Shown: positions 9,120 through 16,653 of the stretch, in pieces
Layout of the letters: every line of letters starts with the position of its first letter
Numbering within the stretch: the first letter of the stretch is position 1
Source of the DNA: Candidatus Heimdallarchaeota archaeon B3_Heim
GTDB taxonomy: Archaea; Asgardarchaeota; Heimdallarchaeia; Hodarchaeales; Hodarchaeaceae
Length of the DNA: 32,000 nucleotides
NCBI GenBank assembly: GCA_003144275.1
Contig: NJBF01000003.1
Span: 1 to 32,000 of the forward strand
Direction of reading: 5' to 3'
Notes under the pieces: model-generated
Told to the model about the DNA's origin: nothing
The model's input: only the letters and a program-made list of their open reading frames with translations
Databases searched by the model: none
Made by a program: the position numbers and the translations under genes

Positions 9120-10583
9120 TTAGAAATATTCAGAAGGATCACGCATTCCGCGCTTTTTGACATCTTTACGAGAAAGAGTTTTAAACTCATTTCGTAATTC
9201 TGCTGGTAATCTGCTTGGTTTTTTAAACCCTTCAACCGAATCTTTGGCATAAGAGTAAATAAAGGTGCGGAAAGCCACTTTCATGGGCATAGTAACTACA
9301 TTGTAGGGAAGTGTTCCAAGGAAAACGAATATTACCGCAAACACAATTCCATACGTTAATTCTTGAGTTACAGCAAATCCTAGACTGAATCCTATTCCGA
9401 TCCAAAGCAGTGAATTTACAACGGCAAAGATAAATGTCGTCAATCCAAAACCTGTTTCACCAACGAGGACATCGACTAGTGCTCCCCAGGTAGTTTTGGC
9501 CGAATCTTTGATCGAATCTCCTAGGCCTTTCTTATTTTGCACGATACTCACCAAGGTAAAATAGTTCAAAAACATCCAGATTGCACCAATAATGGAGATC
9601 AGGAGACTTGCAATAGCAGCGAATATTAAACCACCAATTGCTGCACCAGCATTTCTACCACCAGTACGTGTTGTTTGACCACGAGCAGCACCTGTAAAAA
9701 TCTGCATGATTATTTTTACCGTCGCCATCGCAAAAGCAAATTTGAGAATGATCGGAAATACTTGACGGACATCTTTCATAGCAGATCCCAAATCAGGATC
9801 TAATCCTCTATACCAATCACTGGCATAAGAGATAACTCCAGCAGATAGGCTGTAATATACACCTAGGTACACGATTAAATAGAAATATTCAAAGATAATA
9901 GCCATTATTAGACCAGGATAACTTAATTCTGTTTCGCCTAAAGCATTAGTAACCTCAAAGAGAGAGTAGATTTTGAGAAAGCCAAAAAGCATGAAAAAAC
10001 CCGTTATTATGGAATATATTCCCAGTAATAAGGGCATAGCTAAGACCGCTTTTTCATCGAGCACAAGTTGAGCCGAAAATTCAACAAATTTTCCACTGCG
10101 TTCAATCACTCGAAACTTCCAGATGACAAATGCTAAAAGTAGAAATCCAAAGCCAGCAATAAACATTCCCATCATCGAAGCGTCTAATTGTTCATCCCCA
10201 GGCATGATTATTCCTCCTCCAATCATAAGAACACCTACTACCATCATTAGTACGGGAAAGAGAACTGAAACAAATATTGTGACCTGTTTAGCAACTTTAC
10301 TCATGATCCATAAAATTACAAATGCTAGAATGACAGTCACAACTAGAAACGTTAAGATAAACGCGATTAAGAGCGGTAGAAAGTCTAAAGAAATAGGGAC
10401 TAAAACTTTCAATGCTTCAGACATTTCAGCTAATATACTAGCATTTTCAGGCTTAACAATAAAATCGTAAAATGCATACGCCCCGAAAACATAGAGGGCA
10501 ACTACAACAATCAAATAAAGCCACGTGGGCGTACTTGAAAAATTAGTTTTAATATTGGGTTTTTTATAATTTGAGACACTCAT
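9120..10583 (-). CDS. Choline transporter-like (SLC44/CTL/Pns1) family membrane protein, putative
   Basis: 487 aa, about 10 TM. Segment order and motifs parallel Pns1/CTL: MSKVAKQV, WKFRVIERSGKFV, SDWY, LGSAMKDV, FLNYFTLVSIVQNKKGLGDSIKDS, FRTFIYSYAKD. Confidence 0.6.
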   Translation of the reverse strand: MSVSNYKKPNIKTNFSSTPTWLYLIVVVALYVFGAYAFYDFIVKPENASILAEMSEALKVLVPISLDFLPLLIAFILTFLVVTVILAFVILWIMSKVAKQVTIFVSVLFPVLMMVVGVLMIGGGIIMPGDEQLDASMMGMFIAGFGFLLLAFVIWKFRVIERSGKFVEFSAQLVLDEKAVLAMPLLLGIYSIITGFFMLFGFLKIYSLFEVTNALGETELSYPGLIMAIIFEYFYLIVYLGVYYSLSAGVISYASDWYRGLDPDLGSAMKDVRQVFPIILKFAFAMATVKIIMQIFTGAARGQTTRTGGRNAGAAIGGLIFAAIASLLISIIGAIWMFLNYFTLVSIVQNKKGLGDSIKDSAKTTWGALVDVLVGETGFGLTTFIFAVVNSLLWIGIGFSLGFAVTQELTYGIVFAVIFVFLGTLPYNVVTMPMKVAFRTFIYSYAKDSVEGFKKPSRLPAELRNEFKTLSRKDVKKRGMRDPSEYF

Positions 10584-10833: not shown

Positions 10834-11073
10834 CTATTTACTAACAATAACCATTGTTAGAGTTGATCTAACACCCTTTGCTTGTCGAATTTGATTGATT
10901 ACCATGTCTTTTAAGTTCTTCATAGTATCGGATGAGACTTTACACACTAGATCGTAAACCCCATAAACTACGTAGGCTTCATCAACTTTAATATCTTCAT
11001 TTAAGAATCTTAGAACTTCTTCTTCTTCGCCAATTTCGGCATTGATCATTACGAACGCTGTTGGACGGCTCAT
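10834..11073 (-). CDS. Lrp/AsnC ligand-binding (RAM) domain protein, stand-alone, no HTH
   Basis: 79 aa from ATG 11073: TAFVMIN, EAYVVYGVYDLVCKV, IRQAKGVRSTLTMVIV, the typical AsnC C-terminal domain pattern. Confidence 0.88.
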   Translation of the reverse strand: MSRPTAFVMINAEIGEEEEVLRFLNEDIKVDEAYVVYGVYDLVCKVSSDTMKNLKDMVINQIRQAKGVRSTLTMVIVSK

Positions 11074-11278
11074 GATATATCCACTCTTGATTTTTGTGTC
11101 ACACAAGAAAATATCTTTCTTTTGTCTATTTTGACTACAAACCCATTTGTCTCACTAAGGGATTAAAAAATGTTTGTGTGCCTTTTTTTTTCCTGCCCAT
11201 AATAATTAATAAATAGGCGTAAGATACGGAGTTGTGCAAACGGAATTCGTTCACTTTTTTGCTGAAAATGTGAGGCCT

Positions 11279-12559
11279 ATGGATCTTCGTCATAAACTAC
11301 AGATTCCGGATAAGAATCTTAAAGAAATTAATAATTTTTTACTGAATCCTGATAATCCACTCATAAATGATCTTTTACAAGTAATAGACAAATATGGAGG
11401 AGTGGATGAGATAAATAAGAAAGCAGATGAGGCTGGTCAGTTAGATAATCTAATGACTCGTCTTCAAGACAAGCAACCTAAATATGTGAAAGATCTGGAT
11501 TGGTTAATTGACAAGCGTGATAATGATGCTTTTATAAGTGAGTCAGAATATCGTAGACGAGTTTTAGGTGACCGTTTACCAGATATACAATTTAATGACG
11601 AATATGCAGTCACCCTGGAACTCTCGGCGTGTCAATACTTTCCATTTTTCATGGAAGGAGCCAATCAAGCGATTGGAAGGGAAACCCTACTTCCTGGAAG
11701 AATCATTCGTGTGCGTAAAATGAAAGAACAGGAGGATGATGGGGATCTTTTAGCAATGTCAGCTGCGACGAAAATTATTGGCGCTTCTATTGTTGAAACG
11801 TTGGATACGAAAGGTACTGCTCCAGGTCCAGATGGTGCCCCTGTGAATGTACATCTAGGAGGCCCTGCAACTATTACGGGATATTTCGGAGGCGTTGGCC
11901 AACCAAATGATTTTGCTATGAAATGGATTGATGAATATCTCTATTACTATACCACGTACGGAGTCCAGCAAGCTTTAAACATTAATTTAGGGACAATATT
12001 GCTTGGATATTTCATACACAAATTGGGGATCAATAATGAGTTCAAGATTTCTGTTTTTGTGGGTAATGACAACCCGTTTTCCTGTTTCTGGACGTTGTTG
12101 GCAGCTAAACTCTTTGCACGAGATGATGGTTCAAGTCCCTTAATTGGATTTAATCTTTCTAACTCGGTCAATAATCAGACACTAGAATTAAGTGCCTATA
12201 TCAGAAATAATTTCGGTTTTGAAGATGTTGTACGCTTGGAACATCACATAACTGAAACTTGGAAAAGCATTGTACGACAACCTTACGATCGGCGGGAAGA
12301 GTTAGTAGAACTCGCGCCAAAAGTGAAGAACATCAGTGCGAAGCATGAAGGAGGAAATGTTGATGTGGAACCAAACCGGGATTATCCTACTGACATCCTT
12401 GATTATTTCCGTGATAAATCGGAAATCATAGAAGCTGGCCACTGGGATTACATGAAACAAAATTATTTCGATCGTATGGATGCTATCAATTCAACAGCAC
12501 ATGCATTAACGGAAAAAGGTTTGAGTTTTATTGCTGCGCGTCATCTTCACCATCGGTAA
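11279..12559 (+). CDS. Conserved hypothetical protein, probable alpha/beta-barrel enzyme; first gene of the operon
   Basis: ATG 11279 is preceded by GTGAGG (the ORF track uses GTG 11234). Soluble, with alternating strand/helix pattern and Gly/His/Glu-rich motifs (HLGGPATITGYFGGVGQPN, EHHITET, SAKHEGG). Confidence 0.75.
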   Translation: MDLRHKLQIPDKNLKEINNFLLNPDNPLINDLLQVIDKYGGVDEINKKADEAGQLDNLMTRLQDKQPKYVKDLDWLIDKRDNDAFISESEYRRRVLGDRLPDIQFNDEYAVTLELSACQYFPFFMEGANQAIGRETLLPGRIIRVRKMKEQEDDGDLLAMSAATKIIGASIVETLDTKGTAPGPDGAPVNVHLGGPATITGYFGGVGQPNDFAMKWIDEYLYYYTTYGVQQALNINLGTILLGYFIHKLGINNEFKISVFVGNDNPFSCFWTLLAAKLFARDDGSSPLIGFNLSNSVNNQTLELSAYIRNNFGFEDVVRLEHHITETWKSIVRQPYDRREELVELAPKVKNISAKHEGGNVDVEPNRDYPTDILDYFRDKSEIIEAGHWDYMKQNYFDRMDAINSTAHALTEKGLSFIAARHLHHR

Positions 12560-12561
12560 TA

Positions 12562-13749
12562 ATGTTAACGGATAGTGGCAGAATCATGGATGAAAAACTT
12601 GATTTTGAGAGTCTTAGGACAGGTGCGGGTATTTTCGAAGTACTATCAAAAGCTAAAGCCTTGGAACGAGCTGGTAAAACTATTATTCATTTTGAAATAG
12701 GCCAACCAGATTTTCCCACTCCTTCCCATGTAAAAGAGGCAGCTAAACAAGCTTTAGATGATAATTTCACTGGGTATGTAGCAGCAGCAGGTGTTCTTGA
12801 GCTTCGTCAGGCGATTCAGAATGAAATAGAATTCACTCGGGGTTTTAGGCCAACGGTAGAACAAATATTGGTCACCCCAGGTGCAAATCCCGGAATCTAC
12901 TTTACACTCCGAGCAATAGTCTCTCATCATACAGATGAAGTAATATATTCGGATCCCAGTTTTCCTACCTATGGTGCTGTTCTTAATTATCTGGGTTGTA
13001 AGAAGAAACCTATACCATTGAAGGAAGAGAACAATTTTCGATTAGATCCTGATGATATTGAATCCGCTATAACTAAAAATACAAAAGTAGTAATAATCAA
13101 CTCTCCGATGAATCCGACTGGATCAGTTATGAAGCAAGATGAAATCAATCAGGTTGCTGAATTAGCTGAGGAATATAATTTTTATCTGTTGACTGATGAG
13201 ATCTACTCAAAAATGACTTATGACCAGAAGTTCTATTCTCCAAGTATTCGAGATCAGACAAAAGAAAGAACGATAATTCTGGATGGGTTTTCCAAAGCTT
13301 ATAATATGACAGGTTGGAGATTGGGGTATGCAATTGCTCCTGAAAGAATCATGGATCGAATGGGCTTGTTAATCTCCACAACAGTTTCATGTACGACGTC
13401 TTTCATCCAAAAAGCGGGAATATCAGCTTTAACGGGACCACAAACCGATTTGCATACTAATATGCAAGCTTTTCGGAAACGACGTGATGCAATCGTGAAA
13501 GGATTAAATAATATTCCTGGATTTTCCTGTTTAACACCTCAGGGGGCTTTTTATGCCTTTCCCAACATCATGAAAACTGGAATGTCCTCCAAGGAATTAG
13601 CAGATTTTCTTCTCAATAATGCTGGAGTGGCTTGTTTACCTGGTACAATATTTGGTGCTAATGGTGAGGGATATCTTCGGTTTTCCTATGCTACTGATGT
13701 TACCACTATTCAACAGGCCATTTCTCAGATTAAGGAAGCTTTGGCATAA
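12562..13749 (+). CDS. PLP-dependent aminotransferase class I/II (aspartate aminotransferase-like)
   Basis: IHFEIGQPDF, INSPMNPTG, TDEIYS, PLP-lysine motif DGFSKAYNMTGWRLGY, GAFYAFP, GYLRFSYA. Confidence 0.95.
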   Translation: MLTDSGRIMDEKLDFESLRTGAGIFEVLSKAKALERAGKTIIHFEIGQPDFPTPSHVKEAAKQALDDNFTGYVAAAGVLELRQAIQNEIEFTRGFRPTVEQILVTPGANPGIYFTLRAIVSHHTDEVIYSDPSFPTYGAVLNYLGCKKKPIPLKEENNFRLDPDDIESAITKNTKVVIINSPMNPTGSVMKQDEINQVAELAEEYNFYLLTDEIYSKMTYDQKFYSPSIRDQTKERTIILDGFSKAYNMTGWRLGYAIAPERIMDRMGLLISTTVSCTTSFIQKAGISALTGPQTDLHTNMQAFRKRRDAIVKGLNNIPGFSCLTPQGAFYAFPNIMKTGMSSKELADFLLNNAGVACLPGTIFGANGEGYLRFSYATDVTTIQQAISQIKEALA

Positions 13750-13794
13750 GGAAAACTACAATTTTTGATGATAAAGAATTTAGAAGGCAAAAAA

Positions 13795-14838
13795 ATGAGT
13801 TTAACAAGAATAGCATTCATTGGATTTGGTGTAGTCGGTCAAGGACTCGCTGAAATCTTAGTAGAACAAAAAGAAGAGCTTTCAGAACGCTATGGATTTA
13901 ATTTTCAAGTCGTGGCCATTTCTGATACGATGAAAGGGTCAGTTTATGATGAAAATGGTCTTCATCTTCAGAAGATTTTGGATATTGTGAAAGCAACAGG
14001 AAAGATTAACGACTATCCTGAAGGAATAAAGGGCTGGGATAGTCAGAAAACGATAACAGAAACAAATGCAAATCTGATTGTCGAGGTATCATGGACAGAT
14101 ATCAAAACAGGTGAACCAGCTATTTCTCACGTGAAATCAGCAATTAAATGCTACAAACACATTGTTATGACGAATAAAGGCCCAATTGCTCTCGCCGTAC
14201 GTGAATTACTTGCTATGGCCGCGAATAATGGTGTTCAAGTACGCTTTGAAGGCACTGTTTTGAGTGGAACACCCGCTATTAATTTGGGGCTTAATAATTT
14301 GGCTGGAGTACAGATATCAAAGGTAGCTGGAATCGTAAATGGGACTACAAATTATATCCTTACTGAAATGGAAAAGGGTCTTGATTATACTAGCGCCTTG
14401 AAGCAAGCACAGGAATTAGGATATGCCGAAGCTGATCCGACCGCCGATGTAGAGGGATTTGATGCCTTAGGGAAAATTGTCATTCTAGCAAATGTAGTTA
14501 TGAATGCGAATTTAACAAAAGATGAGGTTTCTTGTCAGGGAATCACTAAAATCACTCCTCAAGATATCGAAACAGCTAAACAGGAAGGAAATCGCTGGAA
14601 ATTAATCGCCAGTGCAGAAATCCAGTCAGATGGATCAGTAAAAGCTGCTGTAAAACCAGAGAAATTACCATTGGAACACCCTCTTGCAGCTGTGAGTGGT
14701 CCGATTAACGCTTTAACCTATACAACCAAACATCTAGGGGAAGTCACCATTATAGGTCCTGGTGCGGGTCGTGCAGCCACTGGGTACGCCCTTCTAACCG
14801 ATATTTTGGACATTCATAGAACAATTACCCGACCTTGA
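13795..14838 (+). CDS. hom: Homoserine dehydrogenase (short type, no ACT domain)
   Basis: IGFGVVG Rossmann motif, TNKGPIA, FEGTVLSGTP, GIVNGTTNYIL, GYAEADPTADVEGFDALGK, GPGAG. ATG 13795 is preferred over TTG 13765. Confidence 0.93.
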   Translation: MSLTRIAFIGFGVVGQGLAEILVEQKEELSERYGFNFQVVAISDTMKGSVYDENGLHLQKILDIVKATGKINDYPEGIKGWDSQKTITETNANLIVEVSWTDIKTGEPAISHVKSAIKCYKHIVMTNKGPIALAVRELLAMAANNGVQVRFEGTVLSGTPAINLGLNNLAGVQISKVAGIVNGTTNYILTEMEKGLDYTSALKQAQELGYAEADPTADVEGFDALGKIVILANVVMNANLTKDEVSCQGITKITPQDIETAKQEGNRWKLIASAEIQSDGSVKAAVKPEKLPLEHPLAAVSGPINALTYTTKHLGEVTIIGPGAGRAATGYALLTDILDIHRTITRP

Positions 14839-14862: not shown

Positions 14863-16653
14863 ATGGGTTATATGGGCAAATATCTAGAGGTTAATTTGAA
14901 CACAGAAAAAATCGCGGAGAAAACAATCGATAAATCATATGGTAAGACATGGATCGGAGGGAAGGGACTCGGAGCAAAAATCCTCTATGATACTCTATCG
15001 CCAAAAGTTGATCCCTTCAGTCCAGAAAATGTATTATTGCTGATGACTGGACCGTTAACAGGAACTTCAGTTCAAACTTCAGGACGGTGGACTGTTGTTA
15101 CTAAATCACCTCATACTGGGATCTTCTTAGATAGCCATGTAGGAGGAAAATTTGGTCACCGCCTAAAACGAGCAGGTTTTGATTATATTACCATTGAAGG
15201 CCAAGCTGCAGAACCAAAATATTTAGAGGTTACATCCGACGGTATAGATCTTCATACAGCCACTGATTACTGGGGAAAAGGGACATATGAAACAGAATCG
15301 TTACTTAAGAAGCAGCATCCAGGGGGTGAAGTGTGTGCTATTGGCCCAGCCGGCGAAAATCTGGTAACTTTCGCTAATATTGTCACAGACCGAACTCACA
15401 CAGCAGGACGCGGAGGAGCAGGAGCAGTCATGGGTTCGAAGAACCTGAAGGCAATTGTTACCCATGGTACTGAAAAAATAGAGGCTAATGATCCAGAGCA
15501 ATTCAAGAAACTTACTCGAACTTTTACAAAGAAGGTCCGCAATAATCCTGGAGTAAAACGCCGGCATGAAATTGGTACTGTCATGTGGGTTAAAATGGCG
15601 AATGAGGCTGGATTTCTTCCCACGCACAACTTCCAAGCAGGAGTATTCGAGGACGCAGACAAAGTTTCAGGAGAGCGTATGCGTGACGAATTTGTGGTGG
15701 GACATACAGCTTGTTATCGATGCAGTATTGCGTGCGGAAAAACCACTCGCTTTGACCAGGGAAAGTACGCTGGACTTGAAGTAGATGGTCCGGAATACGA
15801 AACTACTGCTCTTCTTGGAGCAAGTTGTGGTCTAAATGATCTGGGAGCGATTGCAAAGGCAAATGAGATCTGTGACGATTTAGGCATTGATACGATCACT
15901 GCAGGTGGTACCATAGCGTTTGCAATGGAGGCCACAGAAAAAGGACTGCTCCGTCAAAATGAAATTGATACACTTGAATTTGGAAATGATGATGCTGTCC
16001 ATGCAATGCTTCGACTATTAGCTTTTAGAAAAGGAATTGGTGACTTTTTTGCCCAAGGATCATTATCTGCCGCCAAAAAATTAGGCCATGACAGTAGTTC
16101 GTACGCAATTCAAGTAAAAGGACTAGAATTAGCGGGTGTTGAACCCCGTGGATCTTTTGGAATGGCTTTAGCATATGCTACTTCAGATAGAGGTGGATGT
16201 CATCAAAGATGTTGGACTCCTGGTGCAGAATTGGATGGACGATTGACGCGGTTCTCATTTGAAGGAGTTCCTCAATTTGTTAAAGCTTCGCAGGACGAGA
16301 GAGCGGCCTGTTATTCGCTCGTCGTATGTGATTTTCTTCCCTTTGATGTCCCCGAAATGGTTGAGATGTTGAATGCGGCTACAGGCTTTGATTATTCAGA
16401 AGAAAGTTATTTATTAACTGGAGAACGAATCTGGAATCTTACTCGCACGTTCAATGTACGTGAAGGGATTTCAGCGAAAAATGATGTACTTCCTAATCGA
16501 TTCTCGCAGGAAGCGGCTCCTAAAGGAGATCCTAAAGGCCAACTTATCAAGCAAAGCGATTTTGAAAGCGCAAAAGGTGAATATTACTCTCTTCGAGGTT
16601 GGAATACCAATGGAGTCCCAACACCTGAAAAAATTGATAAGTTAGGAATATAA
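14863..16653 (+). CDS. aor: Tungsten-containing aldehyde:ferredoxin oxidoreductase family protein
   Basis: GGKGLG, AGRGGAGAVMGSKNLKAI, Fe-S ligands CYRCSIAC, GPEYET, DDLGIDTI, SDRGGCH, GERIWNLTRTFNVREG, EYYSLRGW. Confidence 0.95.
   Translation: MGYMGKYLEVNLNTEKIAEKTIDKSYGKTWIGGKGLGAKILYDTLSPKVDPFSPENVLLLMTGPLTGTSVQTSGRWTVVTKSPHTGIFLDSHVGGKFGHRLKRAGFDYITIEGQAAEPKYLEVTSDGIDLHTATDYWGKGTYETESLLKKQHPGGEVCAIGPAGENLVTFANIVTDRTHTAGRGGAGAVMGSKNLKAIVTHGTEKIEANDPEQFKKLTRTFTKKVRNNPGVKRRHEIGTVMWVKMANEAGFLPTHNFQAGVFEDADKVSGERMRDEFVVGHTACYRCSIACGKTTRFDQGKYAGLEVDGPEYETTALLGASCGLNDLGAIAKANEICDDLGIDTITAGGTIAFAMEATEKGLLRQNEIDTLEFGNDDAVHAMLRLLAFRKGIGDFFAQGSLSAAKKLGHDSSSYAIQVKGLELAGVEPRGSFGMALAYATSDRGGCHQRCWTPGAELDGRLTRFSFEGVPQFVKASQDERAACYSLVVCDFLPFDVPEMVEMLNAATGFDYSEESYLLTGERIWNLTRTFNVREGISAKNDVLPNRFSQEAAPKGDPKGQLIKQSDFESAKGEYYSLRGWNTNGVPTPEKIDKLGI

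Follow-up and report, generated by a model that had tools for sequence, protein, structure and literature searches.

The orphan gene and its operon

This work concerns a gene that matches no named family in Candidatus Heimdallarchaeota archaeon B3_Heim (assembly GCA_003144275.1). It lies in a stretch of 32,000 nucleotides, positions 1 to 32,000 of contig NJBF01000003.1, hereafter the window. The gene, called here the orphan gene, is an uninterrupted open reading frame on the plus strand (11279–12559) and encodes a protein of 426 amino acids from an ATG at 11279. We preferred this ATG to an upstream GTG at 11234 because relatives of the protein are 426–428 amino acids long and align from residue 1–3. 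Relatives at 60% identity or more, encoded by at least 582 GTDB species-representative genomes, confirm that this is a real gene and not a chance reading frame. It is preceded by an intergenic control region (11107–11278), in which we read by eye an AT-rich, TATA-like stretch about 60–80 nt upstream of the ATG and a GTGAGG ribosome-binding motif 4–5 nt before it.

On the same strand, the orphan gene is followed by three others, separated by gaps of 2, 15, and 24 nt. The first (12562–13749), which begins 2 nt past the orphan gene, encodes a class I/II pyridoxal-phosphate (PLP) aminotransferase of the aspartate-aminotransferase type (PF00155, E = 9e-71), whose best NCBIfam matches are aspartate or unspecified aminotransferases, all under their equivalog cut-offs. 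Next comes a homoserine dehydrogenase (HSD; 13765–14838), the better-scoring of the two copies in the genome (NF004912, 439.5 bits for a cut-off of 373). The last gene (14863–16653) encodes a tungsten-type aldehyde:ferredoxin oxidoreductase (AOR) with AFOR_N and AFOR_C domains. It is of the AOR subtype, its nearest solved structures being 9mqx and the P. furiosus AOR 1aor (472–479 bits, versus 331 bits for FOR 1b25), and it is one of eight AOR paralogues in B3_Heim.

A widespread family without a characterised relative

The orphan protein is 60–97% identical to its relatives across Asgard archaea, Thermoplasmata, Bathyarchaeia, Chloroflexota, and Caldiserica. A word-indexed search gave at least 8000 significant candidates, the best 120 of which (70–97% identity) come from Hodarchaeales, Loki-, Thor-, and Heimdallarchaeota, and every name given to them by their source is "hypothetical protein." Relatives from Thermoplasmata, Bathyarchaeia, Chloroflexota, and Caldiserica stand at 60–66% identity among the matches listed for GTDB species representatives. 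The gene is found in 153 of 251 Asgard genomes that are at least 80% complete (about 60%), clustered in certain families, and in 57 of the 89 high-quality ones, while a Chloroflexota sample yielded 30 carriers in 401 genomes. It is single-copy in B3_Heim and, with few exceptions, gives a single match in each sampled Asgard or Chloroflexota carrier.

Searches for named relatives returned little. An exhaustive comparison with representatives of 50%-identity clusters retrieved 511 proteins, nearly all of them fragments of the family itself together with only a handful of full-length divergent members (40–64% identity), and linked it to no other family. Pfam and NCBIfam scans of the orphan protein gave no family match, nor did any of 29 family members match a Pfam model at E ≤ 10, PF01116 and PF01136 included. 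Sequence and profile searches of the PDB stopped at unrelated chains (best E 0.016 and 0.39), and a feature search of the ESM-Atlas reached only unrelated clusters, with scores of at most 0.87. Judged by these sequence comparisons, the family is slowly evolving, unnamed, and without a characterised relative.

Two homologues at 48–50% identity lie on virus-like contigs (L105:8001–9158 and L148:174–1439; loci collected in this work carry L numbers). Alongside the homologue, a clamp loader, an ERCC4 nuclease, and a Vsr endonuclease are encoded on one of these contigs, which is 41 kb long and falls in VirSorter category 3; the second, an IMG/VR contig of 101 kb, has a PHROG family and a terminase-like gene. 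These homologues may represent a rare auxiliary metabolic gene.

The protein is predicted to be a TIM barrel

An earlier sequence-only reading of the window had proposed that the protein is a (beta/alpha)8 barrel, from about eight short hydrophobic strands each followed by a polar motif, and had named structure prediction with Foldseek and conservation mapping as the way to check it. Both were carried out. An AlphaFold2 model of the full protein, built on an alignment of 29 sequences, has a mean predicted local distance difference test score (pLDDT) of 88.9 and a predicted template-modelling score of 0.88. It shows a helical domain (residues 1–102) followed by eight beta/alpha units (residues ~106–422), and its only poorly defined part is a Gly-rich loop at residues 180–210. 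A model of the barrel alone (pLDDT 85.4) agrees with it. The two models thus bear out the proposed fold and, at the level of prediction, confirm a TIM (beta/alpha)8 barrel.

The nine motifs picked out in the sequence-only reading correspond to the eight predicted strands and one loop hairpin. VTLELS forms strand 111–116, IIRVR strand 141–144, and IVETLD strand 170–174 in the model; LNIN, FKISVF, and IGFNL fall on the predicted strands 231–235, 254–257, and 288–292; and VRLEHHITE and ISAKHEGG supply the last two (319–325 and 352–356). The remaining motif, VNVHLGG, is predicted to form the hairpin 188–190 within the low-confidence Gly-rich loop.

Conservation was scored over 29 sequences down to 40% identity. 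The invariant residues are E114, S116, R141, R146, D176, N190, H192, N234, K256, S258, D264, N265, N292, R319, E321, H323, K355, H356, and E357, and the invariant polar residues sit on predicted strands 1–8 and the loop hairpin. The expectation that His, Glu, and Asp ligands would line the C-terminal ends of the strands was therefore partly upheld: conserved His, Glu, and Asp, together with Lys and Arg, do stand on the strands and the loops that follow them, but metal binding is a prediction only. An Fe-S site is unlikely, as the protein has only two Cys and neither falls in a column with at least 90% conservation.

Structural comparison with known barrel families

Foldseek placed class II aldolases (fructose-bisphosphate, tagatose-bisphosphate, YdjI, and SqiA aldolases) first for the whole model (E = 2e-4) and for the barrel alone (2.5e-5), with a probability of 1.00. 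The TM-scores are nevertheless below 0.5, at 0.3–0.48 with a root-mean-square deviation (rmsd) of 7–9 Å, or 0.41–0.48 at 7–8 Å for the barrel alone. VIA-align returned more than 700 solved barrels at Z ≥ 8, and its top field is flat at Z of about 11–13; CutC, BKACE, IspG, U32, and GH18 belong to that field, in which class II aldolases are not prominent, and mannonate dehydratase is among the structural matches. Because this list is flat, we assigned no superfamily, and by the models none is assignable. Among predicted structures, the best match is an ESM-Atlas cluster labelled "Peptidase U32 family" (TM 0.56 on the query and 0.74 on the target, rmsd 2.8 Å over 267 residues), 59% of whose members carry PF01136.

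The class II aldolases (PF01116; PDB 3q94, 3c52, 1rv8, 1gvf, 6ofu) share with the orphan protein the (beta/alpha)8 barrel, His and acidic residues conserved toward its end, a mobile Gly-rich loop, and probably enolate chemistry on a carbonyl substrate. In these aldolases, three His hold the catalytic metal and a catalytic Glu sits on a mobile loop; by sequence conservation, the orphan protein offers invariant H192 (in the Gly-rich loop), H323, and H356 as candidate counterparts of the three His. It differs from them in showing no sequence similarity, in an extra helical N-terminal domain of about 100 residues, and in loci that lack a phosphate-sugar gene context.

The U32 barrels (PF01136; Mk0906, UbiU/UbiV, TrhP, RlhA) resemble it in barrel size as well as in the ESM-Atlas match, and Mk0906 (PDB 5d88) scores Z 11.3–11.9 in VIA-align, tied with many other barrels. 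In contrast, we found no sequence or profile similarity (hhalign probabilities of 1.1% against E. coli UbiV and 0.2% against UbiU, with single-sequence templates that limit sensitivity), no conserved Cys for a 4Fe-4S cluster, and a different genomic context; a U32 gene was not found in the five carrier genomes examined. BKACE/DUF849 proteins (Kce, PDB 2y7d and 3c6c) and CutC (4r9x) stand highest in VIA-align, at Z 12–13. BKACE enzymes depend on Zn, and their substrates are keto acids of amino-acid catabolism. Identity to these two families is 3–8%, however, and their Z scores do not rise above those of hundreds of other barrels. By sequence, strand 1 of the orphan protein reads TLELS and lacks the His-x-His motif that, together with a Glu, marks the Zn site of BKACE.

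Conserved neighbourhoods of the orphan gene

We compared 118 loci. GTDB contributed 80 and a random sample of Chloroflexota 29; the others are a few metagenomic loci and the window. Partner genes were located by tblastn after clustering and annotation of open reading frames. Adjacent to the orphan gene stand a DapA-like/Fae gene in 37 loci, a PanB paralogue in 28, HSD in 21, AOR in 20, and an aminotransferase in 20. In 103 of the 118, at least one of the following lies within 6 kb: aldolase-Fae, PanB paralogue, HSD/AOR/aminotransferase, ThrC, an ECF S-component, IlvD, or a glutamate-dehydrogenase-like protein with CBS domains.

Three alternative modules prevail. An aldolase-Fae fusion of about 500 amino acids, usually 13–42 nt downstream, occurs in Loki, Odin, Hermod, some Heimdall, and Bathyarchaeia. 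A PanB-family hydroxymethyltransferase gene is directly upstream in its 28 loci, nearly all of them Chloroflexota. HSD and AOR, usually with the aminotransferase, occupy about 20 loci in Hodarchaeales, Heimdall, Thermoplasmata, and Caldiserica. Across 30 carrier genomes outside Chloroflexota, the Fae-type and HSD-AOR-type modules never occur together: Fae and aspartokinase are both missing from all nine HSD-AOR genomes, and aldolase-Fae genes are present in 19 of the remaining 21. Aspartokinase is absent from 19 of the 30.

The aldolase half of the fusion exceeds the dapA cut-off narrowly (239 versus 206 bits) and retains the TTGE and PYY motifs along with the Schiff-base Lys. In 31 of 38 fusions, a YNIPxCT motif places a Cys at the position of E. 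coli Arg138. In E. coli DapA, this Arg binds the carboxylate of aspartate semialdehyde. We thus ruled out a true DapA; the replacement indicates a pyruvate-type aldolase with another aldehyde partner, and its fusion to Fae, by likeness to Fae-Hps, points to formaldehyde. The fusions at L027:9301–10791 and 37 other loci, which pass the NCBI dapA cut-off, are probably mislabelled as a lysine-pathway enzyme.

The PanB gene beside the orphan gene is a second, lower-scoring paralogue in four of five Chloroflexota genomes; at L084:3004–3858 and 27 other loci, mostly from Chloroflexota, it scores about 60 bits under the canonical copy of the same genome. In Loki genomes and in B3_Heim, the canonical PanB gene is elsewhere and unlinked. 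We regard the paralogue as a candidate methylene-tetrahydrofolate:pyruvate hydroxymethyltransferase. Aldolase-Fae and the PanB paralogue would each join a pterin-bound one-carbon (C1) unit to a 2-oxo acid, and with pyruvate the product would be 4-hydroxy-2-oxobutanoate (HOB), the keto acid of homoserine. The third module links aspartate to its semialdehyde, to homoserine, and, by way of the aminotransferase, to HOB. HOB would then be the only metabolite common to all three modules.

Other arrangements were also seen. In Thorarchaeota, an ECF S-component gene is upstream of the orphan gene, with a divergent ThrC-PadR fusion, and tandem aldolase-Fae genes lie elsewhere in the genome. The fusion, a threonine synthase with a C-terminal PadR-type DNA-binding domain, was seen at L055:5670–7163 (minus strand) and five other Thorarchaeota loci. 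Two Chloroflexota loci (L079:6082–7956 and L069) carry, at most 50 nt from the orphan gene, a 624-aa Glu/Leu/Phe/Val-dehydrogenase-like protein with two C-terminal CBS domains, which may stand in for the aminotransferase. Aspartokinase and Asd genes are directly downstream in two more (L117, L139), convergent to the PanB paralogue/orphan pair. Four Thermoplasmata loci (L049, L053, L056, L076) have a small MTH1187/YkoF-type "thiamine-binding" protein and a four-subunit 2-oxoacid:ferredoxin oxidoreductase divergently upstream, and the alpha and beta subunits of succinyl-CoA ligase downstream.

On the minus strand of the window, divergent from the operon, lies a gene for a stand-alone Lrp/AsnC ligand-binding (RAM) domain protein (10834–11106; PF01037, E = 5e-10). 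A small RAM-domain gene is likewise upstream in the Hodarchaeales/Heimdall loci L001, L002, L007, L008, and L014, and a full-length AsnC regulator precedes the orphan homologue P0142. The RAM-domain protein is a candidate amino-acid-sensing regulator of the operon. Farther out, also on the minus strand, a CTL/SLC44-like membrane protein is encoded at 9120–10583 (weak PF04515 match). The CTL-like gene cluster is also upstream in L007 and L008; it is a neighbour conserved in close relatives only, and its tie to the orphan operon is uncertain.

Homoserine and methionine pathway genes in B3_Heim and other carriers

We searched the B3_Heim genome, which is 94% complete, for the pathways around homoserine. 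Aspartokinase was not found there (best match 29.7 bits), and asd is reduced to two short fragments covering model positions 4–99 and 156–217 (contig C84:29219–29937; locus L111:5219–5938, minus strand). The thrB and thrC genes are intact on contig C51, both over their cut-offs. This combination looks like decay of the textbook aspartate pathway in a genome that still needs homoserine, since thrB and thrC are kept while aspartokinase is absent and asd is broken. The operon in turn looks like a kinase-free route to homoserine. Fae was not found in the genome.

MetX, MetA, and MetM were not found in B3_Heim either; it has one methionine-gamma-lyase-like PLP enzyme, below cut-off, and a weak MetE-like gene. 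Four carrier genomes have a MetE-like gene with neither MetM nor a Cys/Met-PLP enzyme. A clean complementarity between the orphan gene and MetM or Cys/Met-PLP enzymes was set aside, as Loki genomes carry all of them.

The second HSD of B3_Heim, on contig C89 (L110), scores 312 bits, under the equivalog cut-off, and an exact-sequence look-up of it gave no match. It is co-transcribed with a cysteine-desulfurase-like gene (TIGR01976, 413 bits), which it overlaps by 4 nt (C89:3449–5769), and the two are a possible sulfur-transfer module acting on a homoserine or semialdehyde skeleton.

Proposed role at the homoserine/HOB node

We consider it probable that the orphan enzyme acts at the homoserine/HOB node. 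The sequence-only reading had already suspected the homoserine/aspartate-semialdehyde node, and comparative genomics supports that placement; the common metabolite, however, appears to be HOB rather than homoserine or the semialdehyde. Its further suggestion of a committed step that produces homoserine, taken as catabolic, is not favoured in B3_Heim, given the state of aspartokinase, asd, and thrB/thrC. As the AOR-HSD pair can supply homoserine, the orphan enzyme would be a consumer and not a producer at the node. Homoserine supply is in fact explained without it both in AOR-HSD and in aldolase-Fae genomes, which by parsimony makes it a consumer of HOB. The best overall explanation, which we put forward tentatively, is a soluble TIM-barrel enzyme, a metal-assisted lyase or hydratase with HOB as its probable substrate or product, which may exchange the 4-hydroxyl for sulfur.

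In this proposal, the aminotransferase of the B3_Heim operon would make aspartate, which the tungsten AOR would reduce to aspartate semialdehyde with reduced ferredoxin; HSD would carry it on to homoserine and so feed ThrB and ThrC. Pairs of AOR and alcohol dehydrogenase can reduce acids to alcohols. The orphan enzyme may receive HOB that the aminotransferase has formed from homoserine. Other lineages would instead form HOB from pyruvate and a pterin-bound C1 unit, through the aldolase-Fae fusion or the PanB paralogue.

The specific chemistry of the orphan enzyme is harder to guess, and we hold what follows with low confidence. Metal-bound 2-oxo acids enolise readily, and the modelled barrel, lined with Arg, Lys, His, Glu, and Asp, suits the binding and enolisation of such an acid. 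A divalent metal and the conserved Arg, Lys, His, and Glu may bind HOB and enolise it at C3. The 4-hydroxyl could then be eliminated to give 2-oxobut-3-enoate, and a nucleophile, most attractively sulfide or methanethiol, could add at C4. This would yield the keto acid of homocysteine or methionine, for the aminotransferase to aminate, perhaps by exchanging the amino group with homoserine. The same chemistry could equally run in the opposite direction, as methionine catabolism. The C3 enolate of HOB might alternatively undergo retro-aldol cleavage, a reaction that the partner aldolase would already cover.

Such a gamma-replacement would, speculatively, fill the homocysteine gap in B3_Heim and in the four MetE-like carriers. 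We think it rather unlikely that the orphan family is the missing catalyst of a natural keto-acid route to homocysteine or methionine, in which HOB is made from pyruvate and a pterin-bound C1 unit or, without a kinase, from aspartate through tungsten AOR and HSD, and then undergoes gamma-replacement with sulfide or methanethiol and transamination.

Several points weigh against this proposal. Activity, metal, and ligand are all putative, and no sulfur-handling gene is found among the conserved neighbours at the 118 loci. Loki-type genomes carry the orphan gene along with aspartokinase and MetM, mostly with a Cys/Met-PLP enzyme too, so a role in homocysteine synthesis would be redundant there. 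2-Oxobut-3-enoate is a reactive compound, and gamma-replacement on a keto acid is not known to us from any barrel enzyme. The place of the aminotransferase varies: none lies within 6 kb in L081, and it comes last in the Thermoplasmata operons. The 2-oxoacid:ferredoxin oxidoreductase and succinyl-CoA ligase genes around the Thermoplasmata loci suit catabolism, and gene order carries no direction of reaction. The gene absences rest on the 94%-complete B3_Heim genome and on other genomes of which most come without a completeness figure.

Alternative explanations

One alternative keeps HOB, or a related hydroxy-keto acid, as the substrate and makes the enzyme a metal-dependent C-C lyase remotely analogous to class II aldolases; it would cleave or form the compound, for example by releasing or fixing formaldehyde or by condensing with aspartate semialdehyde. 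The first rank of these aldolases in Foldseek for both models speaks for it, as do the invariant H192, H323, and H356, the acidic D176, E321, and E357, and the mobile Gly-rich loop; all partner modules are, moreover, aldehyde or aldol enzymes. We nevertheless judge it improbable, since TM-scores are low and rmsd is high, many unrelated barrels do equally well at Z 11–13 in VIA-align, PF01116 gives no signal at E ≤ 10, aldolase-Fae genomes would hold two enzymes for one bond, and genomes lacking Fae would set formaldehyde free. A similar low probability attaches to an enzyme for the committed step of a catabolic route, in which homoserine or its keto acid is freed from a larger substrate such as the keto acid of methionine, S-methylmethionine, or an O-substituted homoserine, after which oxidation through the semialdehyde to aspartate would give NAD(P)H and reduced ferredoxin. 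In its favour, oxidation of aldehydes is the usual direction of AOR, the carriers belong to sediment lineages, the CTL-like transporter is a neighbour in the window, and some loci have genes for a peptide transporter, 2-oxoacid oxidoreductase, and succinyl-CoA ligase nearby. B3_Heim, however, already has its methionine-gamma-lyase-like enzyme, its retained thrB/thrC without aspartokinase or an intact asd require flux toward homoserine, and hydrolytic release of a thiol from a keto acid would be the thermodynamically less favourable direction.

Somewhat less probable still is a sugar-acid dehydratase that turns erythronate or threonate into HOB (2-keto-3-deoxy-tetronate) in a C4 sugar-acid catabolism with lineage-variable end modules. 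Dehydration of a tetronate yields exactly HOB, mannonate dehydratase appears among the VIA-align matches, and two loci with divergent homologues have a fitting context: L004 adjoins an IlvD/Edd-type dehydratase, an MBL-fold hydrolase, Dak1/Dak2, and IclR, and L006 adjoins MFS, GntR, two PfkB kinases, a sugar-isomerase-type barrel, and ROK. These are, however, the only two sugar-acid contexts in the 118 loci, and Asgard loci have no sugar-acid genes; L004 already possesses a separate dehydratase, above the IlvD equivalog cut-off, and the neighbouring Lrp/AsnC regulators, Asd, aspartokinase, and ThrC point to amino-acid metabolism. A step of pantoate and coenzyme A biosynthesis on ketopantoate from the adjacent PanB would agree with the 28 upstream PanB-family genes, which exceed the panB equivalog cut-off, with IlvD, the maker of the PanB substrate, next to the gene in L004, and with the ECF S-component in Thorarchaeota. 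It is very improbable all the same: the adjacent PanB is the second paralogue beside a higher-scoring canonical copy, the canonical gene is unlinked in Loki genomes and B3_Heim, and the HSD-AOR, Asd, aspartokinase, and ThrC neighbours are left unexplained. We give equally little credence to a Cys-free offshoot of the U32 family (UbiU/UbiV, TrhP, RlhA) whose modification reaction has nothing to do with its neighbours; the ESM-Atlas cluster and the Z score of Mk0906 suggest it, but the lack of a PF01136 signal, hhalign probabilities of about 1% against UbiU/UbiV, the missing Fe-S Cys ligands, and the strongly conserved metabolic neighbourhoods all argue against it.

Relation to known pathways

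The proposed HOB-node enzyme has a parallel in a designed pathway. In the synthetic homoserine cycle of He et al., an engineered formaldehyde-assimilation cycle, pyruvate and formaldehyde are joined to HOB by an HOB aldolase, and HOB is converted to homoserine by an HOB aminotransferase, as a review describes it (PMC8879981). HOB is described there as a non-native metabolite, made by promiscuous E. coli enzymes (PMC8879981). The natural loci share the same node, and their aldolase-Fae, PanB paralogue, and aminotransferase or amino-acid dehydrogenase neighbours mirror the steps of the cycle. They differ from it in having dedicated, conserved genes and in the orphan enzyme, to which nothing in the designed cycle corresponds.

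Should the proposed chemistry be right, its net result, sulfur on C4 of the homoserine skeleton, would be that of the PLP gamma-replacement enzymes (O-acetylhomoserine sulfhydrylase, cystathionine gamma-synthase; PF01053) and of MetM/MetO (PF01837). These act on activated amino acids or the semialdehyde with PLP or other cofactors, whereas the orphan enzyme, which lacks a PLP fold, would act on a keto acid that needs no prior activation. The literature that we searched held no report of HOB in archaea, of aldolase-Fae fusions, of AOR acting with aspartate semialdehyde, or of gamma-elimination on a keto acid, and only reviews of the synthetic homoserine cycle were retrieved; within it, the pathway of the orphan family is not described in nature.

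Significance

Metabolic maps have a clear gap where a single-copy protein keeps more than 60% identity from archaea to bacteria, is carried by about 60% of the sampled Asgard genomes, and bears no family name. The genes around it point to HOB as a naturally occurring intermediate, served by dedicated enzymes in microbes abundant in sediment, and the data indicate that 19 of the 30 sampled carriers outside Chloroflexota make homoserine without aspartokinase. Either natural HOB or homoserine made without the kinase would alter inferences about amino-acid biosynthesis, one-carbon flow, and auxotrophy in Asgard archaea, and both would provide natural parts for synthetic C1 assimilation. If true, the keto-acid route would let many Asgard archaea, Thermoplasmata, Bathyarchaeia, and Chloroflexota dispense with aspartokinase, Asd, and homoserine activation.

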